A stretch of DNA of 64,000 nucleotides from Eledone cirrhosa (GCA_964016885.1 OZ024764.1:3596001-3660000), one strand, 5' to 3'. Positions 2,395 to 63,958 are shown, counted from the stretch's first letter. The notes: a model not told the origin generated them from the letters alone. A program made the numbers and translations.

Positions 2395-4637
2395 ATAGGC
2401 TTGCCAGACTTGTTCTCTGGTGTCCTCGAAGCGGCCTACTGCAACTGGCAGCAGAACGGGAGGATTCCCAGTTCTGTAGGCAGAGGTGTAGTAACACTGA
2501 TCAGGAAAGATGAGAACAAGGGGGGTGAGATAAGCAATTTCAGGCCCATAACTATGCTCAACTCAGAGTTGAAGATTTTGGTCAAGGTGTTAGCAGCGAG
2601 GCTGGTGCTTGTCGTCGAGAATCTGGTAGGGGAAGCGCAAATGTGTGCAATCCATACCAGGTCCATACACGACAACCTCCACCTCATGCAAAACATCATA
2701 CAGAGGGTAAGGGTGTAAATCTGGCTTCAGTGGGGCTATGATCAATTTAGATCAATCTAAGGCATTTGATAGGGTCGACCATCAATACTTGGAAGCGGTT
2801 CTCAAGGCGGCCGGCTTCGGTCCCGTCTTCAGAGGCTGGATCACTGCCATGCACACCAGCATCTGCTCGGCAGTCAAGGTGAATGGCTACCTTTTGGAGC
2901 CATTCCAAATCATGTGCTCCATCCGTCAGGGATGCCCTCTCTCCTCCATTCTGTACGTACTGACTCTCGAGCCATTACTGTGGAAGTTGGAGCTGTTGCA
3001 GGGCATCCCGATCGAACCAGGACTGCGGAAAGCAGTGTCGGCCTATGCTGACGACACAACCGTAATGGTGTCGAAAACCTCGGAAATTGGGGTGATCAGC
3101 AACCTATTACAGGAATACGAAACGTTGACAGGAGCAAGACTAAACCCAAACAAGTCTGTCAGTTTGCAACTCGGCACATGGAGAGGGTAATCCATGCCTT
3201 CCGACAGTGTCATTGGACGCTGGACGGAAGGACCGGTGAAATTGCTTGGGGTCTGGTTTGATCCAGACCTCCATGTGGACAAGAACTGGAACGAGGTCAC
3301 GGCGAAGGTATTTGCACTCACCCAGAAGTGGGCTGAGTGCAAACTCTCCTTGAAAGGTCGAGCGGAGGTGGCAAACACTTACATAGCGTCCGTCATCTAC
3401 TACAACTTGACAGTCGTGCTGTGTCCCCGCGACTACTCTTCAAGTTCCTCTGGAAGAAACAGGCTCCATTGGTGAGGAGATCCATCTGCTGTCAACACCC
3501 TTCTAACGGAGAGCTGGGCATGCCGTGGTTGATGATGCGCAAACACGCGCTGAGGCTACGCCATCTCCAGGTATTCCTGACCGGTGAACCGGTGTGGCTG
3601 TCATTTGTGAGACAAACTCTTCCACAACTCGTCTCACTAACAGAGCTGCAGTCCTGGGTCAAGTGAAGACTGAAAATGGGTGCCTGGCACCTCGAGTGCC
3701 TTCAGGCGCTCACAACCCTCTACCAAGCGGAAACGGCAATCAGCGGAGACTCCACTTTGACATTCTATAGGGGATTAGTGGAGGAGAAGAGCGACAACGT
3801 TCTCGGGGAAACTCTAGGCATCGAGGACGAACTGACCAGTCTGTTTGGGAGGACTTTCCATCCAGGGCCTATGGATAACTTCCAGAGGTCTCTGGGCTGG
3901 CAGTGCTACTGAGGAGCTCTACCAGTTCGAGACAAAATCTACAGGCGCGGACGCCCTGGCAGAGATCCTGCCAAAAGGACCTGTCCAAGATGCGAGCAGG
4001 ACATCGAAACCGTTCTGCATGCAATTGTTCAGTGCCCAGGGGTGACTGACCTGTGGAATTATGTCGAACAGCTACTGTTACATGTGGGACGCATCCACCA
4101 GTTGTCAGCCAAGTCCATCGTGAGGATCACCCCGCCGCCTTCATTTAAGAATGAAGGAGAGGCAGTTTTCCTCTGTCTGGTGGCTATGGCGAAAGAGGTA
4201 ATATGGTGGACGAGGTTAAAAGGACTGAGGGCAAACACCTTATCCCCTTCTTTAAGTACCACTTCAGAAGGAAGGTGAGAGTGGAGAGAGAGGTGCTACA
4301 CCCCAGTATATTCGCTGGAAGGTGGGTAAATGTGGCTAAAATAGCCCGAGTGAATGGGCCTTCTCTGTATATAAACCTGTCGGTTGAGGAAGATGAACAG
4401 AGGGAAGACAGAAACACCTACAAAACGTGTTCCTGGTATTAATGGTTGTTCTATCCACAGGGTGTAAAACAACCCTGCAGTAACGTTCCCCCCTATTGGG
4501 GATTTCAATTGTTATTTTATTATATATAGTTTATTGTTATTTATTAATGTTAAAGTTCTATGATTTTTATGTAAAAGCCCCGCCATCACGTCTTGTAATG
4601 TCCCATTTTTGTATGCCCCTGTGCCAAATAAAGAAAG
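2395..4637 (+). mobile_element. 5'-truncated, degenerate Tx1/L1-clade LINE (RT, zf-RVT)
   Basis: NFRPITMLN, LDQSKAFDRVDH, RQGCPLS, AYADD motifs across several stops and frameshifts. AAATAAAGAAA end. Confidence 0.9.
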
Positions 4638-7957: not shown

Positions 7958-8107
7958 ATAATATATATATATATAAGTTTATCCCAGGTTCAATCAGGGG
8001 TAACCACAGTAAATATGGGAAATAAATACTAAGTCTTCCCAATATGTATATATTTTTTCTTAAAATCTTGACTATAACTTCGTAATATATAATTCTTTAT
8101 CTCTCAA

Positions 8108-9692
8108 TTTTCTACTGTGGTACCTAACTGGAACTAAGTACCACCTATTGGTCCTTAAATTTAACTCACCTTTCTACTGTGGTACCTAACTGGAACTAAG
8201 TACCACCTATTGGTCCTTAAATTTAACTCACCTTTCTACTGTGGCACCTAACTGGAACTAAGTACCACCTATTGGTCCTTAAATTTAACTCACCTTTCTA
8301 CTGTGGTACCTAACTGGAACTAAGTACCACCTATTGGTCCTTAAATTTAACTCACCTTTCTACTGTGGTACCTAACTGGAACTAAGTACCACCTATTGGT
8401 CCTTAAATTTAACTCACCTTTCTACTGTGGTACCTAACTGGAACTAAGTACCACCTATTGGTCCTTAAATTTAACTCACCTTTCTACTGTGGTACCTAAC
8501 TGGAACTAAGTACCACCTATTGGTCCTTAAATTTAACTCACCTTTCTACTGTGGTACCTAATTGGAACTAAGTACCACCTATTGGTCCCTAAATTTAACT
8601 CACCTTTCTACTGTGGCACCTAACTGGAACTAAGTACCACCTATTGGTCCTTAAATTTAACTCAACTTTCAATTGTGGTACCTAATTGGAACTAAGTACC
8701 ACCTATTGGTCCCTAAATCTAACTCACCTTTCTACTGTGGTACCTAATTGGAACTAAGTACCACCTATTGGTCCCTAAATCTAACTCACCTTTCTACTGT
8801 GGTACCTAATTGGAACTAAGTACCACCTATTGGTCCTTAAATTTAACTCACCTTTCTACTGTGGTACCTAATTGGAACTAAGTACCACCTATTGGTCCTT
8901 AAATTTAACTCACCTTTCTACTGTGGTACCTAACTGGAACTAAGTACCACCTATTGGTCCTTAAATTTAACTCACCTTTCTACTGTGGTACCTAACTGGA
9001 ACTAAGTACCACCTATTGGTCCTTAAATCTAACTCACCTTTCTACTGTGGTACCTAATTGGAACTAAGTACCACCTATTGGTCCTTAAATCTAACTCACC
9101 TTTCTACTGTGGTACCTAATTGGAACTAAGTACCACCTATTGGTCCCTAAATCTAACTCACCTTTCTACTGTGGTACCTAATTGGAACTAAGTACCACCT
9201 ATTGGTCCTTAAATTTAACTCACCTTTCTACTGTGGTACCTAATTGGAACTAAGTACCACCTATTGGTCCTTAAATCTAACTCACCTTTCTACTGTGGTA
9301 CCTAATTGGAACTAAGTACCACCTATTGGTCCCTAAATCTAACTCACCTTTCTACTGTGGTACCTAATTGGAACTAAGTTCTACCTATTGGTCCTTAAAT
9401 CTAACTCACCTTTCTACTGTGGCACCTAATTGGAACTAAGTACCACCTATTGGTCCTTAAATCTAACTCACCTTTCTACTGTGGCACCTAATTGGAACTA
9501 AGTACCACCTATTGGTCCTTAAATCTAACTCACCTTTCTACTGTGGTACCTAATTGGAACTAAGTACCACCTATTGGTCCTTAAATCTAACTCACCTTTC
9601 TACTGTGGTACCTAACTGGAACTAAGTACCACCTATTGGTCCTTAAATCTAACTCACCTTTCTACTGTGGCACCTAATTGGAACTAAGTACC
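8108..9692. repeat. 62-bp minisatellite
   Basis: tttctactgtggtacctaactggaactaagtaccacctattggtccttaaatttaactcacc, about 25 copies. Internal GTGGTAC/GTACCAC hairpin. Confidence 0.95.
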
Positions 9693-9900
9693 ACCACAAC
9701 ACTCACTACAACACCACCACCACTACCACTACCACAACACTACACCACACCACCACTACACTACTACACCACTACACAACACACCACCACCACACCACCA
9801 CTACCACCACCACCACACTACCACCACCACCAACACACTACCACCACCACCACCACCAACACACTACCACCACCACCACAACACCTACACCACCACAACA
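9692..9900. repeat. (CAC/CAA)n low-complexity tract
   Basis: Degenerate ACC repeats. Confidence 0.9.
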
Positions 9901-10309
9901 ACATCCTGTATCAGTTTCTTGGAATTAACAGAACTTTCACTTTAAATAAGACAGCCTCAGTCGACTGACTGTATATATGTATATACACTGATATATACAC
10001 CCTCCTGTGTATATAACTGTCTCTTATATATACACCCTCCTGTTTATATCTTTATCTTATATACACATCCTAACATATATATACAACTATATATATACCT
10101 ATAACTATATAATTGAAATTATATAGTTCACATTGAAGAAGAACTTTGTCGGGTAAGTTTACTAATTTTTACTAATAGGCTAGGTAGCCGGTAAAGCCTA
10201 AAGGGATGCAATACACATCGCTACAGCGTTTCACCAGCTCAACCATTCATACATGTGAGTGTACGTAATAATTATTTTGTATAATCTGCATATTTATGAA
10301 TATGTATGA

Positions 10310-12165
10310 GGAGATGTGTGTATATATTTACCTGTAGATGTGTGTATATGTAGGTTTACAGGTCACTTGTCTATATCTGTCTCTATATCTACCTGTAGAT
10401 GTGTGTATATGTAGGTTTACAGGTCTCTTGTCTATATCTGTCTATATATCTACCTGTAGATGTGTGTATATGTAGGTTTACACCTGTCTTGTCTCTATCT
10501 GTCTATATATCTACCTGTAGATGTGTGTATATGTAGGTTTACACCTCTCTTCTCTCTATCTGTCTATATATCTACCTGTAGATGTGTGTATATGTAGGTT
10601 TACACCTCTCTTGTCTCTATCTGTCTATATATCTACCTGTAGATGTGTGTATATGTAGGTTTACACCACTCTTCTCTCTATCTGTCTATATATTTACCTG
10701 TAGATGTGTGTATATGTAAGTTTACACCTCTCTTGTCTCTATCTGTCTATATATCTACCTGTAGATGTGTGTATATGTAGGTTTACACCTCTCTTCTCTC
10801 TATCTGTCTATATATTTACCTGTAGATGTGTGTATATGTAGGTTTACACCTGTCTTGTCTCTATCTGTCTATATATCTACCTGTAGATGTGTGTATATGT
10901 AGGTTTACACCTGTCTTGTCTCTATCTGTCTATATATCTACCTGTAGATGTGTGTATATGTAGGTTTACACCTCTCTTGTCTCTATCTGTCTATATATTT
11001 ACCTGTAGATGTGTGTATATGTAGGTTTACACCTCTCTTGTCTCTATCTGTCTATATATCTACCTGTAGATGTGTGTATATGTAGGTTTACACCTCTCTT
11101 CTCTCTATCTGTCTATATATTTACCTGTAGATGTGTGTATATGTAGGTTTACACCTGTCTTGTCTCTATCTGTCTATATATCTACCTGTAGATGTGTGTA
11201 TATGTAGGTTTACACCTCTCTTGTCTCTATCTGTCTATATATTTACCTGTAGATGTGTGTATATGTAGGTTTACACCTCTCTTGTCTCTATCTGTCTATA
11301 TATCTACCTGTAGATGTGTGTATATGTAGGTTTACACCTCTCTTGTCTCTATCTGTCTATATATTTACCTGTAGATGTGTGTATATGTAGGTTTACACCT
11401 GTCTTGTCTCTATCTGTCTATATATCTACCTGTAGATGTGTGTATATGTAGGTTTACACCTCTCTTGTCTCTATCTGTCTATATATCTACCTGTAGATGT
11501 GTGTATATGTAGGTTTACACCTGTCTTGTCTCTATCTGTCTATATATTTACCTGTAGATGTGTGTATATGTAGGTTTACACCTCTCTTCTCTCTATCTGT
11601 CTATATATCTACCTGTAGATGTGTGTATATGTAGGTTTACACCTCTCTTGTCTCTATCTGTCTATATATCTACCTGTAGATGTGTGTATATGTAGGTTTA
11701 CACCTCTTTTGTCTCTACCTGTCTATATATTTACCTGTAGATGTGTGTATATGTAGGTTTACACCTCTCTTGTCACCATCTGTCTATATATTTACCTGTA
11801 GATGTGTGTATATGTAGGTTTACACCTCTCTTCTCTCTATCTGTCTATATATTTACCTGTAGATGTGTGTATATGTAGGTTTACACCTCTCTTGTCTCTA
11901 TCTGTCTATATATTTACCTGTAGATGTGTGTATATGTAGGTTACACCTCTCTTGTCTCTATCTGTCTATATATCTACCTGTAGATGTGTGTATATGTAGG
12001 TTTACACCTGTCTTGTCTCTATCTGTCTATATATCTACCTGTAGATGTGTGTATATGTAGGTTTACACCTCTCTTGTCTCTATCTGTCTATATATTTACC
12101 TGTAGATGTGTGTATATGTAGGTTTACACCTCTCTTGTCTCTATCTGTCTATATATTTACCTGTA
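10310..12165. repeat. 61-bp minisatellite
   Basis: gtagatgtgtgtatatgtaggtttacacctctcttgtctctatctgtctatatatctacct, about 30 copies. Confidence 0.95.
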
Positions 12166-12196
12166 GAAACGGCTTGAGCTCTCCCGTCGGGGTCTT

Positions 12197-12232
<36 letters not shown>

Positions 12233-12319
12233 AGAATAGGATTGGCTGTTTAGTTGCTAGTTAAGTTAGGCTTAAAATTGGAATGAGAATAATATATATA
12301 TATACACACACAGACACAC

Positions 12320-12356
<37 letters not shown>

Positions 12357-12704
12357 TAAATGAAAAGTATAGAAATTGTTTTAGCGAGAAGCTAACAGTA
12401 TTCCAATATATATATATATACATATATATATGTGTGTGTGCCTGTGTATGTCCATCAGGTACTAACAGGAGATAACGAAGTATGGGGTGACAAACCTTAG
12501 AAAACAGTGACCAGTGTTACACTTTTAAAATATAACTACCATCGTGTGTATATATATATATGTATATATGTAGGAGGTGAGTTTTATTGTAGTACAATAA
12601 GATTTCTTAATATATATATATATGTGTGGGTGTGTATATGTGTGTGTGTATGTATATATATATATATATATATATGTGTGTTTGTATCGATATATGTGTT
12701 TGTG

Positions 12705-13537
12705 TCATGGGCGATGACACCCTTGGAGAGTCGCTGGACATGGAAGAGGACGAACTGGCCAGCCTATTCGGTAGGACTTTCGGCCCGGGACCAATGGACA
12801 ACTTCCAGAAGTCACTGGCCTGGCAGTGCTACCGGGGGGCTCTACCCGTTCGAGAAAAGCTCTACAGACACGGGCGCCCGGGCAGGGATCCCTCGAAAAA
12901 GATTTGCCCTAGATGCGTGCGTCACGAAGAAACCGTTGCGCACGCATTGGTGCAATGTCCGGACGTGGCTGGTCTGTGGGGCTACGCCGAACAACTGCTG
13001 TCGCGGGTGGCGCCGATTAAATTGACCGCCGAGTCCGTGATGACAATCAAACCGCCTCCCCTCTTCACAAAGGAAGCAAAGGCGGTTTTTCTGTGCATAA
13101 TAGCCATGTTGAAAGAGGTTGTTTGGTGGACACGATTGAAAGGTCTGAGGTCAGGCAACTTCCTCTCTGGCCATAGTCTGGTCTACTTCTTCCGATATCA
13201 CTTCGGAAGAAGGATAAGAATGGAGAGAGAGGTGCTTGGCCACAGGCAGTTTTAAGAAAGGTGGGTGATAGTGGCGAGAATGGCTCGTGTAAATGGGCCT
13301 TCTCTGTATACCATCCTGTAGGTAAAGAAGTGAAGGAGAGGGGAGCACCTCCTCCATGTGCTCCCCGGGCAAAGGATTGCACACTTTTTCGGGGGTGTGT
13401 GCAACCCCCATCACGTCCCCTCCCTTTTGAGGTTGTTTTCGATTATTTTCATTTTATACCCTTTTTACTCGATTTTATGTAAACTCCCCCTTTGTATTTG
13501 TCCCTTCTTTTTGTGCCTTTATGGTAAATAAAGAAAT
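12705..13537 (+). mobile_element. Tx1/L1-clade LINE 3' fragment
   Basis: CPRC..EETVAHALVQCP motif, AAATAAAGAAA end. Confidence 0.85.
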
Positions 13538-13822
13538 ATATCTATGTATTTGTGTCATCATCATCGTTTAACGTATATCTTCCACGCAAACATGGGTTTA
13601 GACGTATATATGTGTTTGTGTGTATATATATGTGTTTATGTGTATATATATGTGTCTGTGTATATAGATATGTGTATGTGGCCACATATATATACACACA
13701 AACACACATATATATAAAGTAGAAACAATTAATTTCTCTATTTTCATTTATATATATATGTCCCAAGGCTCTGAAACCTTCAATACGAAAAACATAGAGG
13801 TGGCATATCTAAGAACTGACTA

Positions 13823-13878
13823 ACTGCCTGATGAGGTCATAGCCATTCAATGGCTATCATCGAAATATATATAGCAGT
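13823..13878 (+). ncRNA. Type I hammerhead ribozyme (Penelope pLTR-type)
   Basis: actgc CTGATGA ggtc-atagcca-ttcaa-tggctat-catc GAAA tatat ATA gcagt: stems I and II plus a self-complementary short stem III. Confidence 0.8.
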
Positions 13879-13919
13879 AAATAAAGGATTATGAGTTCAT
13901 GCAATTGACTTATGTTTCG

Positions 13920-13978
<59 letters not shown>

Positions 13979-14224
13979 ATACTATACAGACACACACACA
14001 CATATATATATATATATATTAAAGAGTTAAACAAGATTCAATGAGTACATCAAAGAATGAGTTTTACAGTAGATTGGAAGCACTCTACAACTTTAAATGT
14101 ACAGTTATGTTTCATAAAACCCTTAAAATGTGCAGTTGTGTTGTATGTATGGACCTGTAACTCCTAATAGAGTGGTAGGGGTGCCACATTGACTTACAGC
14201 ATTTCAAACCTCGCAGAGCCCATC

Positions 14225-17200
14225 CCTCTGTTTATAATATTTACTGTATTATAACACTGTCTGTCTATCCCCACATGTATTACTGTTACACCTGTTTATA
14301 ATATTTACTGTATTATAACACTGTCTGTCCAGCCCCACATGTATTACTGTTACCCCTGTTTATAATATTTACTGTATTATAACACTGTCTGTCTATCCCC
14401 ACATGTATTACTGTTACCCCTGTTTATAATATTTACTGTATTATAACAGTCTGTCTGTCCAGCCCCACATGTATTACTGTTACACCTGTTTATAATATTT
14501 ACTGTATTATAACACTGTCTGTCTATCCCCACATGTATTACTGTTACCCCTGTTTATAATATTTACTGTATTATAACACTGTCTGTCCAGCCCCACATGT
14601 ATTACTGTTACCCCTGTTTATAATATCTACTGTATTATAACACTGTCTGTCCAGCCCCACATGTATTACTGTTACCCCTGTTTATAATATTTACTGTATT
14701 ATAACACTGTCTGTCTATCCCCACATGTATTACTGTTACCCCTGTTTATAATATCTACTGTATTATAACACTGTCTGTCCAGCCCCACATGTATTACTGT
14801 TACACCTGTTTATAATATTTACTGTATTATAACACTGTCTGTCTATCCCCACATGTATTACTGTTACCCCTGTTTATAATATTTACTGTATTATAACAGT
14901 CTGTCTGTCCAGCCCCACATGTATTACTGTTACCCCTGTTTATAATATCTACTGTATTATAACACTGTCTGTCCAGCCCCACATGTATTACTGTTACCCC
15001 TGTTTATAATATTTACTGTATTATAACACTGTCTGTCCAGCCCCACATGTATTACTGTTACCCCTGTTTATAATATTTACTGTATTATAACACTGTCTGT
15101 CCAGCCCCACATGTATTACTGTTATCCCTGTTTATAATATTTACTGTATAATAACACTGTCTGTCCAGCCCCACATGTATTACTGTTACCCCTGTTTATA
15201 ATATTTACTGTATTATAACAGTCTGTCTGTCCAGCCCCACATGTATTACTGTTACCCCTGTTTATAATATTTACTGTATTATAACAGTCTGTCTGTCCAG
15301 CCTCACATGTATTACTGTTACCCCTGTTTATAATATCTACTGTATTATAACACTGTCTGTCCAGCCCCACATGTATTACTGTTACCCCTGTTTATAATAT
15401 TTACTGTATAATAACACTGTCTGTCCAGCCCCACATGTATTACTGTTATCCCTGTTTATAATATTTACTGTATAATAACACTGTCTGTCTAGCCCCACAT
15501 GTATTACTGTTACCCCTGTTTATAATATCTACTGTATTACAACACTGTCTGTCCAGCCCCACATGTATTACTGTTACCCCTGTTTATAATATCTACTGTA
15601 TTATAACACTGTCTGTCCAGCCCCACATGTATTACTGTTACCCCTGTTTATAATATCTACTGTATTACAACACTGTCTGTCCAGCCCCACATGTATTACT
15701 GTTACCCCTGTTTATAATATTTACTGTATAATAACAGTCTGTCTGTCCAGCCCCACATGTATTACTGTTACCCCTGTTTATAATATTTACTGTATTATAA
15801 CACTGTCTGTCCAGCCCCACATGTATTACTGTTACCCCTGTTTATAATATTTACTGTATAATAACACTGTCTGTCCAGCCCCACATGTATTACTATTACC
15901 CCTGTTTATAATATTTACTTTCTTATAACACTGTCTGTCCAGCCCCACATGTATTACTGTTACCCCTGTTTATAATATCTACTGTATTATAACACTGTCT
16001 GTCTATCCCCACATATATTACTGTTACCTCTGTTTATAATATTTACTGTATTATAACAGTCTGTCTGTCCAGCCCCACATGTATTACTGTTACCCCTGTT
16101 TATAATATTTACTGTATTATAACACTGTCTGTCCAGCCCCACATGTATTACTGTTACCCCTGTTTATAATATCTACTGTATTATAACACTGTCTGTCCAG
16201 CCCCACATGTATTACTGTTACCCCTGTTTATAATATTTACTGTATAATAACACTGTCTGTCCAGCCCCACATGTATTACTGTTACCCCTGTTTATAATAT
16301 TTACTGTATAATAACACTGTCTGTCCAGCCCCACATGTATTACTGTTACCCCTGTTTATAATATCTACTGTATTATAACACTGTCTGTCTATCCCCACAT
16401 ATATTACTGTTACCTCTGTTTATAATATCTACTGTATTATAACACTGTCTGTCTATCCCCACATATATTACTGTTACCTCTGTTTATAATATTTACTGTA
16501 TTATAACAGTCTGTCTGTCCAGCCCCACATATATTACTGTTACCCCTGTTTATAATATCTACTGTATTATAACAGTCTGTCTGTCCAGCCCCACATATAT
16601 TACTGTTACCCCTGTTTATAATATCTACTGTATTATAACAGTCTGTCTGTCCAGCCCCACATATATTACTGTTACCCCTGTTTATAATATCTACTGTATT
16701 ATAACAGTCTGTCTGTCCAGCCCCACATGTATTACTGTTACCCCTGTTTATAATATCTACTGTATTATAACAGTCTGTCTGTCCAGCCCCACATATATTA
16801 CTGTTACCCCTGTTTATAATATCTACTGTATTATAACACTGTCTGTCTGTCCAGCCCCACATATATTACTGTTACCCCTGTTTATAATATTTACTGTATT
16901 ATAACACTGTCTGTCCAGCCCCACATATATTACTGTTACCTCTGTTTATAATATCTACTGTATTATAACAGTCTGTCTGTCCAGCCCCACATGTATTACT
17001 GTTACCCCTGTTTATAATATCTACTGTATTATAACAGTCTGTCTGTCCAGCCCCACATGTATTACTGTTACCCCTGTTTATAATATTTACTGTATTATAA
17101 CAGTCTGTCTGTCCAGCCCCACATGTATTACTGTTACCCCTGTTTATAATATCTACTGTATTATAACAGTCTGTCTGTCCAGCCCCACATGTATTACTGT

Positions 17201-17535
17201 TACCCCTGTTTATAATATTTACTGTATTATAACACTGTCTGTCCAGCCCCACATGTATTACTGTTACGCCTGTTTATAATATCTACTGTATTATAACACT
17301 GTCTGTCCAGCCCCACATGTATTACTGTTACCCCTGTTTATAATATCTACTGTATTATAACACTGTCTGTCTATCCCCACATGTATTACTGTTACCCCTG
17401 TTTATAATATCTACTGTATTATAACAGTCTGTCTGTCCAGCCCCACATGTATTACTGTTACGCCTGTTTATAATATTTACTGTATTATAACACTGTCTAT
17501 CCCCACATATATTACTGTTACCTCTGTTTATAATC
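14225..17535. repeat. 64/66-bp minisatellite (probably intronic)
   Basis: cccctgtttataatatttactgtattataacactgtctgtccagccccacatgtattactgtta, about 51 copies. Runs directly into a splice acceptor. Confidence 0.95.
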
Positions 17536-17593
17536 TAAAATCTGCTCTGTTTTTCTCTTCTCCCCAGACATCTTGTCAACAATAACCTGAATT

Positions 17594-18391
17594 ATGCAAA
17601 TTGCCGTCGCCCTCCCTATAATAGCAGCCGGAAACTTGATCGCTGAATATCTACGAAACAGACGTATTGAACAGCGTGAAACTCGAGAGCTTAATGAACA
17701 GCATGAAGGGCGTCAATTTAGGGAGCAGCTTATGCTTCAGTTAGCTGAAGAAGAACGGGAGAAATCGGCACATCGCAGACATCTGGATTATGAAACACAT
17801 CAATTAGCTCTGAATGAAAAGGAGCAGAAACTGAATAAAGAAATGATACCATATCTGGGCATAGCATTGGTGATTGTGGTGATGGCGTTAGCTATAGTGG
17901 TGGTGATGTGTGTATATTGGTTGGTACCGTTAGTCTGTTGGTTGTTACAGTATGTAGTGATGTCTGTCTTTTGTTTGTTACAGTATGTAGTGATGTCTGT
18001 CTGTTGGTTGTTACAGTATGTAGTGATGTCTGTCTTTTGGTTGTTACAGTATGTAGTGATGTCTGTCTGTTGGTTGTTACAGTATGTAGTGATGTCTGTC
18101 TGTTGGTTGTTACAGTGTGTAGTGATGTCTGTCTGTTGGTTGTTACAGTATGTAGTGATGTCTGTCTGTTGGTTGATAAAATATGTAGTGATGTCTGTCT
18201 TTTGGTTGTTACGGTATGTAGTGATGTCTGTATATCAGTTCTTTAACTTTAAAGCTATGGTTTTCATTGCAATTCTGGGATTTGTTATTTATCACATTCA
18301 TGATGATACAAAACCTAAACCTCTTCAACATCCTAATAATGCTAATAATAACAAAAAAAACAAAAAAAACAAAAAAATGACGAAACAATGA
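17594..18391 (+). CDS. Orphan putative membrane protein: charged coiled-coil N-terminus, TM segment, about 9 x 11-aa VVMSVCWLLQY repeats, TM segment, Lys/Asn-rich tail
   Basis: 265-aa ORF after a strong acceptor (ctgtttttctcttctccccAG at 17567), with an in-frame stop just upstream of the ATG. Candidate upstream donor GG|GTAAGT at 10153. Paralog at 43978. Confidence 0.6.
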   Translation: MQIAVALPIIAAGNLIAEYLRNRRIEQRETRELNEQHEGRQFREQLMLQLAEEEREKSAHRRHLDYETHQLALNEKEQKLNKEMIPYLGIALVIVVMALAIVVVMCVYWLVPLVCWLLQYVVMSVFCLLQYVVMSVCWLLQYVVMSVFWLLQYVVMSVCWLLQYVVMSVCWLLQCVVMSVCWLLQYVVMSVCWLIKYVVMSVFWLLRYVVMSVYQFFNFKAMVFIAILGFVIYHIHDDTKPKPLQHPNNANNNKKNKKNKKMTKQ

Positions 18392-18439
18392 GATCTCTTC
18401 ATGGCTGGAGTGTAACTGATTTTGGTACTTACTGTACCT

Positions 18440-18710
18440 ATGATGGTATTGATGGTTGTATCAGAAGCTGTGATGGTATTGATGGTTGTATCAGTAGCTG
18501 TGATGGTATTGATGGTTGTATTGGAAGCTGTGATGGTATTGATGGTTGTATCGGTAGCTGTGGTGGTATTGATGGTTGTATTGGAAGCTGTGATGGTATT
18601 GATGGTTGTATCGGTAGCTGTGGTGGTATTGATGGTTGTATTGGAAGCTGTGATGGTATTGATGGTTGTATTGGAAGCTGTGATGGTATTGATGGTTGTA
18701 TTGGTAGCTG
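18440..18710. repeat. 30-bp minisatellite
   Basis: gtgatggtattgatggttgtattggaagct, about 9 copies (about 3 in copy 2 at 46088-46180). Confidence 0.9.
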
Positions 18711-19394
18711 CTCTGTTTTCCTGTCCCTCCAAGGAAGACATCCAAGCATCAACCACCTTAATTATGATGTGGAGACAAGACGGCAGTGATGAAGACTCTG
18801 ATAGTGCAGCAATAGAGTTTTATAGAAAACTTATTCCTGGCTTCGGAGAAGGGTTAGATGGAGTGTTCAGTGGAATGTCTTTCAACCCACAAGCTCTGGG
18901 ATTTCTTGCTCACCCCATATATAACACAGTAAAAGCTTTATCTCACATAACATTACTCTATAAATACTATTGTATTTTCATGGTAAACACTTTACCTCAC
19001 ATAATATTGAATCTATGAGATTTTGATGATTTGATTGGGCATGGACTGTAATTAAGGTCGAGTGACATAACTTTTAATGATCAGCGGCTTTTAGACTCAC
19101 CTTATTAAAGAAACAATTGTTAATACTGTAAATAAACCCTATTGTACAGCCGCCCATGTTATTCTTCATTCTTTTATTATACAGATATATATATATACCA
19201 AAGGTAGAACTATATATATCTACATAGAACTACATACATCTATACTAATAAAGCGGAGGGCCGTATGTAAGTAACAAACTTTTCACCAAACGGCACCAAA
19301 TTTACACCATAGATATAACTATTTCCAAGTAAGAAAGTGGGAGTATTTTTGTCAACTGAATTTTGTTAAAAGATTAAAGACATTATTTAAATAT

Positions 19395-19807
19395 TCACTT
19401 TGCTAGCACCTTGGCCAAAATCTGTAACTCTGTATTTAGCAGAGTTATGGGCCTGAAGTTACTTATTTCGTACCCGACCTCCCATGGGTACATGCTGAAG
19501 CATATAAACAATATGCCCCCACACCCCCTACCGCAAGGTGGTCGTGGAGGTGCCACGGCAAAAAAGCACCCAGCCCACACTGTAAAGTGGACGTGTAGGC
19601 GCGCCACGAAAAAGCACCCAGCACTCACTGTAAATGAGGTTGGTGTTAGGAAGGGGATCCAGCTGTAGAAATCAAGCCAGATCAGTTCCTGTATGAGCAA
19701 GGCATGGTCAGCCGACCAGACACTGCCCACAACAGGACAACCCGTCTAACCCATGCTAGCGTGGAAGAACGGACGTAAAACGGTGATGATGATGATGATG
19801 ATGATGA
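19395..19807. mobile_element. Chimeric insertion: Tx1 RT fragment (-) joined to an RTE 3' tail (+)
   Basis: SNFRPITLLNTELQILAKVLAK on the minus strand, then RTE 3' UTR ending in (GAT)n. Absent from the paralogous site at about 48757. Confidence 0.75.
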
Positions 19808-20192
19808 CTTCTTTAAAATTTTCAAATGTCAATGCTTTCGGTTATACAACATTCCTCTCTCTTTCTTAGTCTGTCTTTTTAGATAGCTACTAGCAGAATG
19901 GCCTGGCGTACACATACACACGTACACATACACACAACATATATATAAATACATACACACACACACATATATATATACATATAAATACATATATACATAT
20001 ATATATATACATATACACACACATATATATATACATATATATATATACATATATATATACATATATATATATATAAACAAGGTTTAGAAAATAATGAAAA
20101 AGTTTCAAAATAAATTTTTAAAAATTGACTTTACCTACTATAGTTACCTTTACCGATCGGTTTCGAATCCCCAAAAAAAGGAACACATATCC

Positions 20193-20263
<71 letters not shown>

Positions 20264-20300
20264 AAAACGAAATAAAAAATCAAGTCATTAGAGATATACT

Positions 20301-21358: not shown

Positions 21359-21371
21359 TTATATATATATA

Positions 21372-21720
21372 TTAGAAAGTGAGGTTTTTTTTACAAAATA
21401 ACCGAGGTGTCCTACACGAGTGAAAGTATAAGGAAAAAAGATGAAAATCGAAAATGCAACTGGAGTCTTTTTTTTTTAAATATATATATTTATTTGGTTC
21501 CTTTACCGGTTTCGCAGTTCTTCTGATTTTCAAAAGTAGAGTTGAGATGGAGGGTCTGTGGCTTTTCACAGATGTGAGAAAAGCCACAGACCCTCCATCT
21601 CAACTCTACTTTTGAAAAGCAGAAGAACTGCGAAACTGGTAAAGGAACCAAATAAATATATATATCTTTTTAAAAAAAGACTCCAGTTGCATTTTCGATT
21701 TTCATCTTTTTTCCTTATAT
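21372..21720. mobile_element. Palindromic (divergent inverted) pLTR-like insertion with one HHR per arm
   Basis: Arms of about 140 bp around a spacer at 21568-21577. Both outer ends abut (TA)n. Confidence 0.75.
21608..21645 (+). ncRNA. Minimal type I hammerhead ribozyme, U3-A8 variant (mirror copy at about 21500-21537, minus strand)
   Basis: ctt TTGAAAA gcag-aagaa-ctgc GAAA c(t/c)g GTA aag. The minus-strand copy has palindromic stem III ACCGGT. Confidence 0.65.
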
Positions 21721-21734
21721 ATATATATATATGT

Positions 21735-22115
21735 CCTTACCATCTCAGTCTTCTCTCCTGCACACCACAACTTATCCCTCTTGACATTACACATCCAACG
21801 GAGCATGCTTGCTTCATTTCTCTCCAGCCGTCGCATGTCCTCTGCAGTTGCTGACCATGTCTCACTACCATGCAGCAAGTGCATCTCACCAGGCTTTCAT
21901 CATATAACCGGCCTTTTGTTCAGAGGAAGAAACCCTTCGTTGTCAACAGGGGAAGCAGCTCCCTAAACATGGGCGGAGGTGGTGAGAGCAGACCTCAGAT
22001 TGCTGAAACTCACGGAGGAGATGATGAAGGACCGTGACGGGTGGAGAGATGCTGTGCTGAATAGGACCCGTCCAACCCTTGTAAGCAGGGAAAAGCAGAC
22101 ATAAAATGATGATGA
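21735..22115. mobile_element. RTE fragments in inverted arrangement
   Basis: LHGSETW..RRLERNEASMLRWMC on minus, then an RTE 3' end with (GAT)n on plus. Confidence 0.7.
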
Positions 22116-22198
22116 TATATATAGATACATATATATATATATATATATAGATACATATATATATATATACACACACATACACATACACTTACATCCAC

Positions 22199-22243
<45 letters not shown>

Positions 22244-22583
22244 AACATACATACATATATATATATACACACACATACATATACATATATACACATACAT
22301 ATACATGTGTGCATACGCATACATATATATATATATATACACACACACATATACATACATACACAAATACATACACATATACACACACATGGATATACAC
22401 ACACTAGGATACTAGCTCCTTCTATTGCCCAGATGGGAAAAGCAGACATAAAATGATGATGATATATATAGATACATATATATATATATATATAGATACA
22501 TATATATATATATACACACACATACATACATACACACATACACATACACTTACATCCAGATATAAATATATATATATATATAT

Positions 22584-24771
22584 ATTGGAATAAATGCTCT
22601 GAAATAGCGATATATATGTGAATATAGACATAGAATATTCGAAAATATTCTGTATGTTTATAATAAACATTTTGAAGACCTAATCGCTATAGAATAGAAT
22701 ACGTCACGTATTACAATTAGATTCTCGATAAAAGCAAGGGAAGTAATCTACGCGTTTCATTCTCGTTAGAAATCATCAGGACTACATATCCAGTGCTTTT
22801 ATCGAGAATGACACAGCTAGAGACTTATAGAATACTTAGCTGTGTACAGGAACTGGTTTGAAAGAGCGGTTGCCGGTCCGGCAGAAATTAGAAATTGGAA
22901 TAAATGCTCTGAAATAGCGATATATATGTGAATATAGACATAGAATATTCGAAAATATTCTGTATGTTTATAATAAACATTTTGAAGACCTAATCGCTAT
23001 AGAATAGAATACGTCACGTATTACAATTAGATTCTCGATAAAAGCAAGGGAAGTAATCTACGCGTTTCATTCTCGTTAGAAATCATCAGGACTACATATC
23101 CAGTGCTTTTATCGAGAATGACACAGCTAGAGACTTATAGAATACTTAGCTGTGTACAGGAACTGGTTTGAAAGAGCGGTTGCCGGTCCGGCAGAAATTA
23201 GAAATTGGAATAAATGCTCTGAAATAGCGATATATATGTGAATATAGACATAGAATATTCGAAAATATTCTGTATGTTTATAATAAACATTTTGAAGACC
23301 TAATCGCTATAGAATAGAATACGTCACGTATTACAATTAGATTCTCGATAAAAGCAAGGGAAGTAATCTACGCGTTTCATTCTCGTTAGAAATCATCAGG
23401 ACTACATATCCAGTGCTTTTATCGAGAATGACACAGCTAGAGACTTATAGAATACTTAGCTGTGTACAGGAACTGGTTTGAAAGAGCGGTTGCCGGTCCG
23501 GCAGAAATTAGAAATTGGAATAAATGCTCTGAAATAGCGATATATATGTGAATATAGACATAGAATATTCGAAAATATTCTGTATGTTTATAATAAACAT
23601 TTTGAAGACCTAATCGCTATAGAATAGAATACGTCACGTATTACAATTAGATTCTCGATAAAAGCAAGGGAAGTAATCTACGCGTTTCATTCTCGTTAGA
23701 AATCATCAGGACTACATATCCAGTGCTTTTATCGAGAATGACACAGCTAGAGACTTATAGAATACTTAGCTGTGTACAGGAACTGGTTTGAAAGAGCGGT
23801 TGCCGGTCCGGCAGAAATTAGAAATTGGAATAAATGCTCTGAAATAGCGATATATATGTGAATATAGACATAGAATATTCGAAAATATTCTGTATGTTTA
23901 TAATAAACATTTTGAAGACCTAATCGCTATAGAATAGAATACGTCACGTATTACAATTAGATTCTCGATAAAAGCAAGGGAAGTAATCTACGCGTTTCAT
24001 TCTCGTTAGAAATCATCAGGACTACATATCCAGTGCTTTTATCGAGAATGACACAGCTAGAGACTTATAGAATACTTAGCTGTGTACAGGAACTGGTTTG
24101 AAAGAGCGGTTGCCGGTCCGGCAGAAATTAGAAATTGGAATAAATGCTCTGAAATAGCGATATATATGTGAATATAGACATAGAATATTCGAAAATATTC
24201 TGTATGTTTATAATAAACATTTTGAAGACCTAATCGCTATAGAATAGAATACGTCACGTATTACAATTAGATTCTCGATAAAAGCAAGGGAAGTAATCTA
24301 CGCGTTTCATTCTCGTTAGAAATCATCAGGACTACATATCCAGTGCTTTTATCGAGAATGACACAGCTAGAGACTTATAGAATACTTAGCTGTGTACAGG
24401 AACTGGTTTGAAAGAGCGGTTGCCGGTCCGGCAGAAATTAGAAATTGGAATAAATGCTCTGAAATAGCGATATATATGTGAATATAGACATAGAATATTC
24501 GAAAATATTCTGTATGTTTATAATAAACATTTTGAAGACCTAATCGCTATAGAATAGAATACGTCACGTATTACAATTAGATTCTCGATAAAAGCAAGGG
24601 AAGTAATCTACGCGTTTCATTCTCGTTAGAAATCATCAGGACTACATATCCAGTGCTTTTATCGAGAATGACACAGCTAGAGACTTATAGAATACTTAGC
24701 TGTGTACAGGAACTGGTTTGAAAGAGCGGTTGCCGGTCCGGCAGAAATTAGAAATTGGAATAAATGCTCTG
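22584..24771 (-). mobile_element. Retrozyme-like 310-bp tandem array, left arm (7 units, HHR on minus strand)
   Basis: taaatgctct recurs at 22591, 22901 ... 24761 (period 310). No unit differences seen by eye. Confidence 0.9.
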
Positions 24772-27700
24772 TACACAGCTAAGTATTCTATAAGTCTCTA
24801 GCTGTGTCATTCTCGATAAAAGCACTGGATATGTAGTCCTGATGATTTCTAACGAGAATGAAACGCGTAGATTACTTCCCTTGCTTTTATCGAGAATCTA
24901 ATTGTAATACGTGACGTATTCTATTCTATAGCGATTAGGTCTTCAAAATGTTTATTATAAACATACAGAATATTTTCGAATATTCTATGTCTATATTCAC
25001 ATATATATCGCTATTTCAGAGCATTTATTCCAATTTCTAATTTCTGCCGGACCGGCAACCGCTCTTTCAAACCAGTTCCTGTACACAGCTAAGTATTCTA
25101 TAAGTCTCTAGCTGTGTCATTCTCGATAAAAGCACTGGATATGTAGTCCTGATGATTTCTAACGAGAATGAAACGCGTAGATTACTTCCCTTGCTTTTAT
25201 CGAGAATCTAATTGTAATACGTGACGTATTCTATTCTATAGCGATTAGGTCTTCAAAATGTTTATTATAAACATACAGAATATTTTCGAATATTCTATGT
25301 CTATATTCACATATATATCGCTATTTCAGAGCATTTATTCCAATTTCTAATTTCTGCCGGACCGGCAACCGCTCTTTCAAACCAGTTCCTGTACACAGCT
25401 AAGTATTCTATAAGTCTCTAGCTGTGTCATTCTCGATAAAAGCACTGGATATGTAGTCCTGATGATTTCTAACGAGAATGAAACGCGTAGATTACTTCCC
25501 TTGCTTTTATCGAGAATCTAATTGTAATACGTGACGTATTCTATTCTATAGCGATTAGGTCTTCAAAATGTTTATTATAAACATACAGAATATTTTCGAA
25601 TATTCTATGTCTATATTCACATATATATCGCTATTTCAGAGCATTTATTCCAATTTCTAATTTCTGCCGGACCGGCAACCGCTCTTTCAAACCAGTTCCT
25701 GTACACAGCTAAGTATTCTATAAGTCTCTAGCTGTGTCATTCTCGATAAAAGCACTGGATATGTAGTCCTGATGATTTCTAACGAGAATGAAACGCGTAG
25801 ATTACTTCCCTTGCTTTTATCGAGAATCTAATTGTAATACGTGACGTATTCTATTCTATAGCGATTAGGTCTTCAAAATGTTTATTATAAACATACAGAA
25901 TATTTTCGAATATTCTATGTCTATATTCACATATATATCGCTATTTCAGAGCATTTATTCCAATTTCTAATTTCTGCCGGACCGGCAACCGCTCTTTCAA
26001 ACCAGTTCCTGTACACAGCTAAGTATTCTATAAGTCTCTAGCTGTGTCATTCTCGATAAAAGCACTGGATATGTAGTCCTGATGATTTCTAACGAGAATG
26101 AAACGCGTAGATTACTTCCCTTGCTTTTATCGAGAATCTAATTGTAATACGTGACGTATTCTATTCTATAGCGATTAGGTCTTCAAAATGTTTATTATAA
26201 ACATACAGAATATTTTCGAATATTCTATGTCTATATTCACATATATATCGCTATTTCAGAGCATTTATTCCAATTTCTAATTTCTGCCGGACCGGCAACC
26301 GCTCTTTCAAACCAGTTCCTGTACACAGCTAAGTATTCTATAAGTCTCTAGCTGTGTCATTCTCGATAAAAGCACTGGATATGTAGTCCTGATGATTTCT
26401 AACGAGAATGAAACGCGTAGATTACTTCCCTTGCTTTTATCGAGAATCTAATTGTAATACGTGACGTATTCTATTCTATAGCGATTAGGTCTTCAAAATG
26501 TTTATTATAAACATACAGAATATTTTCGAATATTCTATGTCTATATTCACATATATATCGCTATTTCAGAGCATTTATTCCAATTTCTAATTTCTGCCGG
26601 ACCGGCAACCGCTCTTTCAAACCAGTTCCTGTACACAGCTAAGTATTCTATAAGTCTCTAGCTGTGTCATTCTCGATAAAAGCACTGGATATGTAGTCCT
26701 GATGATTTCTAACGAGAATGAAACGCGTAGATTACTTCCCTTGCTTTTATCGAGAATCTAATTGTAATACGTGACGTATTCTATTCTATAGCGATTAGGT
26801 CTTCAAAATGTTTATTATAAACATACAGAATATTTTCGAATATTCTATGTCTATATTCACATATATATCGCTATTTCAGAGCATTTATTCCAATTTCTAA
26901 TTTCTGCCGGACCGGCAACCGCTCTTTCAAACCAGTTCCTGTACACAGCTAAGTATTCTATAAGTCTCTAGCTGTGTCATTCTCGATAAAAGCACTGGAT
27001 ATGTAGTCCTGATGATTTCTAACGAGAATGAAACGCGTAGATTACTTCCCTTGCTTTTATCGAGAATCTAATTGTAATACGTGACGTATTCTATTCTATA
27101 GCGATTAGGTCTTCAAAATGTTTATTATAAACATACAGAATATTTTCGAATATTCTATGTCTATATTCACATATATATCGCTATTTCAGAGCATTTATTC
27201 CAATTTCTAATTTCTGCCGGACCGGCAACCGCTCTTTCAAACCAGTTCCTGTACACAGCTAAGTATTCTATAAGTCTCTAGCTGTGTCATTCTCGATAAA
27301 AGCACTGGATATGTAGTCCTGATGATTTCTAACGAGAATGAAACGCGTAGATTACTTCCCTTGCTTTTATCGAGAATCTAATTGTAATACGTGACGTATT
27401 CTATTCTATAGCGATTAGGTCTTCAAAATGTTTATTATAAACATACAGAATATTTTCGAATATTCTATGTCTATATTCACATATATATCGCTATTTCAGA
27501 GCATTTATTCCAATTTCTAATTTCTGCCGGACCGGCAACCGCTCTTTCAAACCAGTTCCTGTACACAGCTAAGTATTCTATAAGTCTCTAGCTGTGTCAT
27601 TCTCGATAAAAGCACTGGATATGTAGTCCTGATGATTTCTAACGAGAATGAAACGCGTAGATTACTTCCCTTGCTTTTATCGAGAATCTAATTGTAATAC

Positions 27701-27786
27701 GTGACGTATTCTATTCTATAGCGATTAGGTCTTCAAAATGTTTATTATAAACATACAGAATATTTTCGAATATTCTATGTCTATAT
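24769..27786 (+). mobile_element. Retrozyme-like 310-bp tandem array, right arm (about 9.7 units, 10 HHRs on plus strand)
   Basis: gtacacagct recurs at 24771, 25081 ... 27561. Reverse complement of the left-arm unit. Confidence 0.9.
24809..24897 (+). ncRNA. Type I hammerhead ribozyme (representative; repeats every 310 bp, 17 copies in total)
   Basis: gtagtc CTGATGA t-ttct-aacg-agaa-t GAAA cgc GTA gattac. Palindromic stem III ACGCGT. Stem I is extended by a perfect 16-bp helix attctcgataaaagca/tgcttttatcgagaat. Predicted cut after 24869. Confidence 0.85.
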
Positions 27787-27986
27787 ATATATATATATAT
27801 ATATACACACAAACATACATACATATATATATATACACACACATACATATACATATATACACATACATATACATGTGTGTGCATACGCATACATATATAT
27901 ATATATACATACATACACAAATACATACACATATACACACACATGGATATACACACACTAGGATACTAGCTCCTTCTATTGCCCAG

Positions 27987-63876: not shown

Positions 63877-63878
<2 letters not shown>

Positions 63879-63958
63879 CATCGTGGCAGAGTGGTTAAGG
63901 CGATGGACTAGAAATCCTTTGGGGTCTCCCCGCATAGGTTCGTATCCTATCGTCGACG
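63877..63958 (+). tRNA. tRNA-Ser(AGA)-like, probably a pseudogene or SINE head
   Basis: 82 nt with TGGCAGAGTGG, anticodon loop CT-AGA-AA, long variable arm and GGTTCGTATCC. Two acceptor-stem mismatches. Confidence 0.75.

Follow-up and report, generated by a model that had tools for sequence, protein, structure and literature searches.

A divergent two-armed array of a 310-bp retrozyme unit in Eledone cirrhosa with the geometry of a Penelope insertion

The window analyzed here, a stretch of 64,000 nucleotides from Eledone cirrhosa (GCA_964016885.1, OZ024764.1:3596001-3660000), carries two divergent arms of a tandemly repeated 310-bp unit, which meet head to head and are flanked on both sides by a (TA)n tract. 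Positions are counted from the first letter of the window, whereas positions within the unit are given as phases, phase 1 being the base right after the predicted hammerhead cut. The features of the locus are the following:

21366..21719, no strand: palindromic solo pLTR of a Neptune-type coding Penelope-like family, a separate element 0.9 kb from the array
22091..22437 (about), plus strand: paralog in tandem with the target region, its TA tract (33 nt) empty and unbroken
22564..22585, no strand: left part of the (TA)n target, its last AT common to tract and left arm
22584..24771, minus strand: left arm with 7.06 retrozyme units of 310 bp, all identical, terminating on the outer (3') side at phase 165 (long, 'tailed' site)
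24603..24645, minus strand: matching predicted hammerhead in the innermost left-arm unit, from the sequence
24769..24771, no strand: head-to-head junction, CTG common to both arms, inner phases 148 and 210
24769..27786, plus strand: right arm with 9.74 units, all identical, terminating on the outer (3') side at phase 127 (short site)
24833..24875, plus strand: predicted type I hammerhead in the first right-arm unit, read from the sequence and recurring every 310 bp
27782..27806, no strand: (TA)n target to the right of the array, TATAT common to tract and right arm

The left arm (2,188 bp) runs from phase 148 at its inner end to phase 165 at its outer end and the right arm (3,018 bp) from phase 210 to phase 127, with 0 mismatches to the 310-bp unit in either of them. 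The initial annotation had described outward arms that meet at a shared CTG, outer ends that stop away from the cleavage site at differing phases, arm lengths equivalent to about 7 and 10 rounds and a palindrome with arms of about 2.2 kb, and each of these descriptions was recovered in the measured coordinates, phases and unit counts. In particular, the whole left arm is the perfect reverse complement of 25017-27204, which corresponds to a computed stem of 2,188 bp with a loop of 245 nt. The array holds 7 hammerhead cores on the minus and 10 on the plus strand, spaced by exactly 310 bp, and in both arms the hammerhead strand faces outward. G and C account for 107 of the 310 bases of the unit (35%), its longest reading frame has 30 codons, and an RT plus GIY-YIG frame is absent from it, such frames being present elsewhere in the genome. 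In the read data one 340-nt contig of the unit was obtained in each of two runs, neither of which spans the arm junction.

The predicted ribozyme comprises the CTGATGA core and a GAAA segment together with three helices, namely stem I (GTAGTC/GATTAC), a stem II whose base is T-T and a helix III formed by the palindromic ACGCGT, and its predicted cut in the first right-arm unit lies between 24869 and 24870. All core positions and stem I are legible in the unit, which contains one type I motif, and stem I was recovered in the computed folds (monomer z = -3.9). A search of the unit against Rfam at both thresholds left the hammerhead unmatched, so that the assignment stands at the level of the motif. 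As a weak test of selection, 0 of 29 fixed variants fell into the 12 ribozyme core positions, where about 1 was expected.

With respect to the target, the paralog repeats the identical flanks around an unbroken TA tract; the array is therefore an insertion, and its flanks are contiguous host DNA and not mirror images of each other. The TA tracts around the array measure 20 and 23 nt, compared with 33 nt in the empty paralog, and the overlap of the outer ends with the tract, AT on the left and TATAT on the right, was verified as initially annotated.

A 32-base ribozyme pattern matches the 3.0-Gb genome exactly at 4,242 places; the first 100 matches listed correspond to 10 loci, nine of which are divergent two-arm arrays. 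Patterns for the outer ends gave 744 long-end and 766 short-end matches on the plus strand, which was used since the minus-strand counts are inflated by repeat reporting, and hence the family comprises roughly 1,500 loci. For comparison, every long-end site listed on contig C1 up to 128 Mb was fetched. Six unpaired short-end sites were listed up to 56 Mb; five of them were fetched too, and the sixth lay inside a stretch already included. The resulting sample contains 76 elements including the window, and all but the window lie in the first 128 Mb of contig C1. Two arms were present in 66 of the 76, every one in the order minus then plus (outward); the other ten are single-armed (6), ambiguous due to a gap or an edge (2) or carry a second arm only 11 or 19 nt long that stops at the long site (2). 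After removal of L071, which is cut by the stretch edge, and L087, a probable assembly duplicate beside an N gap, 64 complete two-arm loci remained. At these loci the arms have median lengths of 3.3 units (short-ended) and 4.7 units (long-ended), and both exceed 2 units at 42/64. The lengths of the two arms are weakly correlated (rho 0.23, p = 0.07), and the number of rounds is roughly exponential with a mean of 4.8 units. The flanks of the fetched elements show that the target is AT-rich or (TA)n across the family, a preference which is partly built into the end search patterns and holds equally at the 10 ribozyme-picked loci. Duplications at 23 loci, which bear on target-site duplication, are repeat-like and indistinguishable from microsatellite.

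The outer ends proved to be strictly paired. All 64 loci combine one short end (phase 126-139) with one long end (phase 163-172), and two short or two long ends occurred at 0/64, though both end types are about equally common genome-wide, so that the partner end should be long about half the time if the ends were independent. Short ends lie at phase 130 at 40 loci, at 139 at 13 and between 126 and 134 at the rest; long ends, whose spread is constrained because most loci were chosen by one end (mainly the long one), lie at phase 165 at 42 loci, at 167 at 9, at 170 at 6, at 172 at 4 and elsewhere at three. The offset from short to long end is 26-45 nt with a mode of 35. The random outer phases predicted by the initial annotation were thus not borne out. 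Fixed start and end positions had been named there as evidence against its model, and for one half of that clause they are indeed what was found; nevertheless, the fixed outer ends suggest internal initiation of the Penelope type, and the proposed priming from both target ends stands. Run-off at the ribozyme cut was rejected. A choice of the priming site by TA microhomology was rejected as well: the commonest short end (phase 130) overlaps the TA tract by 1 nt and phase 165 by 2 nt, while 42 sites in the unit give at least 2 nt.

According to the portions of PMC11167929 considered here, a purified Penelope-like protein from anole, for which a dimer is predicted, prefers AT-rich DNA, of which it cuts as well as extends both strands. 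It starts reverse transcription at two internal RNA sites which bound a tail of 30-40 nt, and uses unprocessed RNA as its main in vitro substrate. Likewise, in the relevant sections of PMC3846280 and PMC8557442, Penelope-like elements insert into (TA)n, one end bears a tail, and a 5'-truncated copy lies in inverted orientation. By analogy, the outer end sites of the present family are Penelope 'tail' sites, the offset mode of 35 nt fitting the tail of 30-40 nt.

Penelope-like elements of this genome exhibit a related arrangement. The solo pLTR at 21366-21719 has outward arms with one long and one ~60-nt shorter end, both in TA, and is 88-91% identical to the terminal repeats of L127, L128 and L136; L127 encodes RT and GIY-YIG, and a CxxC linker was found for this Neptune-type family. 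In a second, ribozyme-bearing coding family 11/11 hand-picked minus/plus pairs consist of one long and one short end, ~70 nt apart. In one member (L209) RT and GIY-YIG-like motifs were recognized by eye in a disrupted reading frame, and its relatives gave weak to moderate GIY-YIG matches. Furthermore, the ends of an older sister family, which shares ~70% identity with the unit, lie at homologous positions as judged by eye. A helper pLTR homologous to the end-determining region was sought in 40 GIY-YIG loci (20 short, 20 long), 30 sister-family loci and 38 family-C loci, with none found among these. The closest coding family shares with the unit only 26/28 bases around the ribozyme core, which is within the shuffle maximum, and has a tail of ~70 nt.

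The nature of the template was addressed via the sequence variants of the units. Among the 64 loci 28 haplotypes were distinguished, and the variant calls comprise 121 locus-fixed, 0 arm-specific, 72 singleton and 11 partial cases. Within the 57 loci whose arms each cover at least 20 of the 29 variable sites, both arms agree in haplotype at 56, compared with 452 of 3,192 cross-locus pairs (14%). Sixteen variants are fixed at a single locus, and 13 of them were seen in both arms; these 13, private among 64 of ~1,500 loci, are present in all covering units of both arms, for instance in 18/18 at L059 and 17/17 at L084 (maximum 22/22). Among the fixed variants A-to-G changes outnumber T-to-C (8 vs 3; singletons 3 vs 8), a small excess that may hint at RNA editing.

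Private variants fixed in all units require a bottleneck of one unit followed by amplification, and a one-unit bottleneck with subsequent one-step amplification, as a circle would give it, fits the data best. This demand counts against a rather unlikely variant of Penelope-type two-end priming, in which the template would be a linear uncleaved read-through transcript of the parent array or a multimeric circle. Copying of linear multimers only shortens arrays, yet the longest arms reach 27 and >30 units. On the other hand, matching arms are also expected from homogeneous parent arrays, uncleaved RNA is the main in vitro substrate of the anole element (PMC11167929, in the portions cited above), and at two loci (L060 and L097) the first round of each arm carries a variant, at one and the same position of the template, which the later rounds lack. 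Such mirrored first-round-only variants cannot be given by a monomeric circle, the change of allele within one arm of L089 likewise speaks against a purely monomeric one, and multimers probably served as the template for some insertions. In 183 doubly covered units, however, only 2 rare variants were mirrored and 44 unmirrored, whereas by our estimate ~21 mirrored ones are expected at equal parent load; this figure is a maximum, because part of the singletons may stem from sequencing errors or have arisen by mutation afterwards. Taken together, the variant and haplotype pattern lends support to the several rounds on circular or multimeric RNA that had been proposed initially.

Alternatively, short two-armed insertions might have been expanded later by slippage or unequal exchange and their arms homogenized by gene conversion, as parts of a 2026 preprint (10.64898/2026.07.22.740005) put forward for the expansion of retrozyme arrays generally; repeated variants at L047, L049 and L082 and an allele switch inside the left arm of L089 may indeed be DNA-level events. 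We nonetheless consider such an origin highly improbable, as 29/64 loci lack any singleton yet have a median of 7.9 units, array length does not rise with singleton density (rho -0.09, p = 0.5; no length-age trend), and variants typically occur in all units or in one, as the 121 fixed and 72 singleton calls against 11 partial ones illustrate.

In contrast to the outer ends, the 128 inner ends are distributed uniformly around the unit (chi-square p = 0.76), and 3/128 lie within 5 nt of the cut, compared with 4.1 expected. The simple joins, 63 in number, comprise 41 flush or overlapping ones and 22 with inserts, which at several joins match nearby unit sequence. The 3-nt overlap in the window would on its own be weak evidence, 6.7% of random joins giving at least 3 nt. 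Family-wide, an overlap of at least 2 nt was observed at 25/41 flush or overlapping joins (null 18.2%, p = 1.6e-9), an excess that bears out the microhomology seen initially at the single junction. The combination of microhomology and inserts is a pattern which we take to resemble polymerase theta end joining.

The same junctions bear on the possibility that a fold-back read created the inversion as a chimera of sequencing or assembly. Long perfect palindromes are difficult to sequence, and the initial annotation had named fold-back reads as a possible source of error. The 64 loci nevertheless have distinct junctions of their own, their two inner phases lie within 10 nt of each other at 5/64 (4.3 expected), the outer ends differ by rule, and the flanks are unmirrored and contiguous with the empty paralog, so that an artifact retains virtually no probability.

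A biological fold-back was weighed separately. A single end might prime, the cDNA fold back or switch template, the second arm arise as a DNA copy and the tail be trimmed at resolution; akin to this are the self-priming and endonuclease-resolution ideas outlined in sections of PMC3846280 and PMC8557442, respectively. Such a course would not need two enzymes on one RNA to explain the one-tail rule, the microhomology and the single haplotype per locus. The copied arm should, however, be the shorter one and have one end type, whereas the long-ended arm is longer at 33/64 loci and shorter at 31/64. Given in addition that the inner phases are not fold-back-like, that where both arms cover the template 44 rare variants are unmirrored and that both strands are extended by the anole protein in purified form (PMC11167929, same portions), we regard it as clearly improbable.

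Strict L1 twin priming places the second primer at the point where synthesis of the first cDNA ended. For the present family, an inner end adjacent to the start of the other arm was found at 7/64 loci in each direction compared with 4.3 expected, and the outer ends are internal to the unit, 126-172 nt past the cut, with no poly(A); strict L1 twin priming was consequently rejected. From the L1-style mechanism proposed in the initial annotation, priming by both ends, outward arms and microhomology remain, while the adjacency does not.

The features in hand are thus the geometry, the pairing of one short with one long end, the uniform inner ends, the microhomology or inserts at the joins and the single haplotype per locus. 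We consider it probable that the window contains a non-coding retrozyme array for which a Penelope-like endonuclease/RT primed both cut ends on one probably circular RNA, the products being joined after several rounds. Two-ended priming of the Penelope type as such, on a circular or a linear template, appears very likely. In the proposed sequence of events, a parent array would be transcribed, self-cleaved and ligated into 310-nt circles, and a Penelope-like protein, probably a dimer, would bind the unit and cut both (TA)n strands. The cDNA from one DNA end would start at the long site (~165) and that from the other at the short site (~130); both would circle the template through the ribozyme site for several rounds, for which strand displacement would be needed if one circle were shared. 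The free cDNA ends would then stop at random phases and be joined by microhomology-mediated end joining, and host repair would supply the second strands. Transcription, self-cleavage, circles and helper are all inferred from the DNA. Among the points that speak against this reading are the weak correlation between arm lengths and the six single-armed elements. More tentatively, and with slightly less than an even chance in our judgment, the arrays might directly record how Penelope-like elements integrate: one dimer would act on one RNA and cut both (TA)n strands, its two active sites starting at the two tail boundaries, one on each DNA end, and chasing each other by strand displacement on the circle, with the products end-joined into kilobase palindromes.

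Compared with known systems, the array is a non-LTR retrozyme by its sequence-level features, and it behaves as a Penelope insertion. With the non-LTR retrozymes, as characterized in parts of PMC7229834 and of the 2026 preprint, it shares a non-coding tandem unit (310 nt here, 170-400 in their range), a G+C content below 50%, one predicted type I hammerhead per unit and dispersed multi-copy arrays. As in the axolotl HHR_Amex2 hammerhead, stem II has a U-U pair at its base, and the palindromic helix III is shared with retrozymes. Target-site duplications, when present in non-LTR retrozymes, exceed 4 bp; the putative ones here are indistinguishable from microsatellite sequence. Inverted arms, junctions and end phases are undescribed in the parts of these two sources considered, whereas here nearly all insertions are two-armed; a search by terms in PMC7229834 and the main text of the preprint yielded no inverted arms, and the latter no tails either. 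Circle-templated tandem cDNA and Penelope-like helpers are proposed in passages of both, and the preprint, in the part concerned, links retrozymes to pLTRs by phylogeny and suggests local amplification.

Head-to-head inverted arms, a tail at one end and an AT-rich or (TA)n target are in turn common to the present family and to Penelope/Poseidon, Neptune and Naiad in the relevant sections of PMC3846280, PMC8557442 and PMC11167929, as are two internal start sites and the little homology to the target that is required. In those sections the tail is optional or often at one end, whereas the pairing is strict here (64/64). The unit furthermore differs from Penelope-like elements in lacking a reading frame and in that its arms are multi-round copies of one small unit; a parent pLTR of the unit was not among the coding Penelope-like loci compared. 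With L1 twin priming (Ostertag and Kazazian 2001, as summarized in part of PMC2246262) the family shares two-sided priming, outward arms and microhomology at the inversion point; it differs in that priming takes place at neither an RNA 3' end nor poly(A), the cDNAs copy overlapping rather than adjacent sequence, and the start sites are fixed. In the literature searched, which covered main texts and few subscription texts, two-armed retrozymes are undescribed, the architecture itself being described for Penelopes. The parts are known; their combination, the strict pairing and the evidence for many rounds from one haplotype appear to be new within that literature.

The origin of the tandem and inverted structures and of the tail of Penelope-like elements is called an open question in the respective section of PMC8557442, and the mobilization of animal retrozymes is a hypothesis in the parts of PMC7229834 and the 2026 preprint concerned. 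The young family described here, with ~1,500 near-identical and countable insertions, ties the Penelope tail signature to a retrozyme: each DNA end uses one of two start sites, and the arms of each insertion appear to derive from one variant over several rounds. Satellite-like palindromes several kilobases long can accordingly arise in one step, and tools that look for tandem arrays only split each two-armed insertion in two. For the in vitro Penelope system, the reading predicts that a circular template is used and that both ends are extended, each from one start site. If the more tentative view of one dimer on one RNA is true, the Penelope tail and the inverted copy would be two faces of one obligatory two-ended reaction, and the ~1,500 palindromes in this genome would be recent products of double rolling-circle reverse transcription.

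The end geometry of the array recurs close by, in a palindromic solo pLTR (the terminal repeat of Penelope-like elements), and elsewhere in the genome in coding and non-coding elements:

Window 21366-21719: a solo pLTR, palindromic, from a Neptune-type coding family of Penelope-like elements
L177-L214 (e.g. L209:1200-8112): coding Penelope-like family with a ribozyme motif
L138:3260-6525: RT/GIY-YIG fragment forming a near-perfect 3.3-kb palindrome
L108:2440-2868 and L147-L176: sister retrozyme family, older

Both ends of the solo pLTR lie in TA, one being a long and the other a short end, and the terminal TTTCTAAT of the long end is also that of phase 172, the most distal among the long sites of the array. 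The same combination was observed for the coding family with the ribozyme motif, in which each of the pairs (11/11) consisted of one long and one short end with a tail of about 70 nt. This family accounts for about 9,800 motif matches, and 26 of the 28 bases of its ribozyme core are identical in the window unit. For the RT/GIY-YIG palindrome the right arm exceeds the left by about 50 nt.

The sister retrozyme family (2,660 motif matches) shares about 70% identity with the window unit at a period of about 313; its arms are short and its end sites are homologous to those of the window-unit family. It carries a GTAAGT...TATTTCAG pair which resembles a leftover intron, and the acceptor-like part of this pair is also found in the window unit at phase 150.

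In public runs, contigs containing the unit (query: window 24560-25180) occurred under many organism codes (20 rows from 17 studies), the plain reading of which is cross-contamination or mixed samples. Two runs each yielded one 340-nt contig of the unit with an identity of 99% or more. Two Hi-C runs with the organism code of the first run listed with the unit gave 0 reads, which is no test of its presence.

The window also holds a large duplicated block (about 8100-20300 and 29000-49200), whose minisatellites (61, 64, 33 and 30-bp units) keep their order and differ in copy number between the copies. Adjoining a TA tract is a further feature:

Window 63877-63958: a tRNA-like sequence scoring 38 bits against Rfam RF00005, perhaps a SINE head or else a pseudogene

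Among other loci of the window-unit family, L045 and L101 have their arms linked by a 16-nt inverted repeat within the unit (phases 13-28 and 250-265), the L043 join shows an additional small double inversion, and L049 contains a foreign insert of 272 nt. At L089 phase 276 has changed from A to G in all units of the right arm and in the two inner units of the left arm; the four outer units of the left arm lack this allele, and the A-to-G change is found again on several haplotypes. In the right arm of L082 two variants reappear jointly in rounds 5 and 12, and this period of 7 units could reflect either a multimeric circle or a block duplication at the DNA level.
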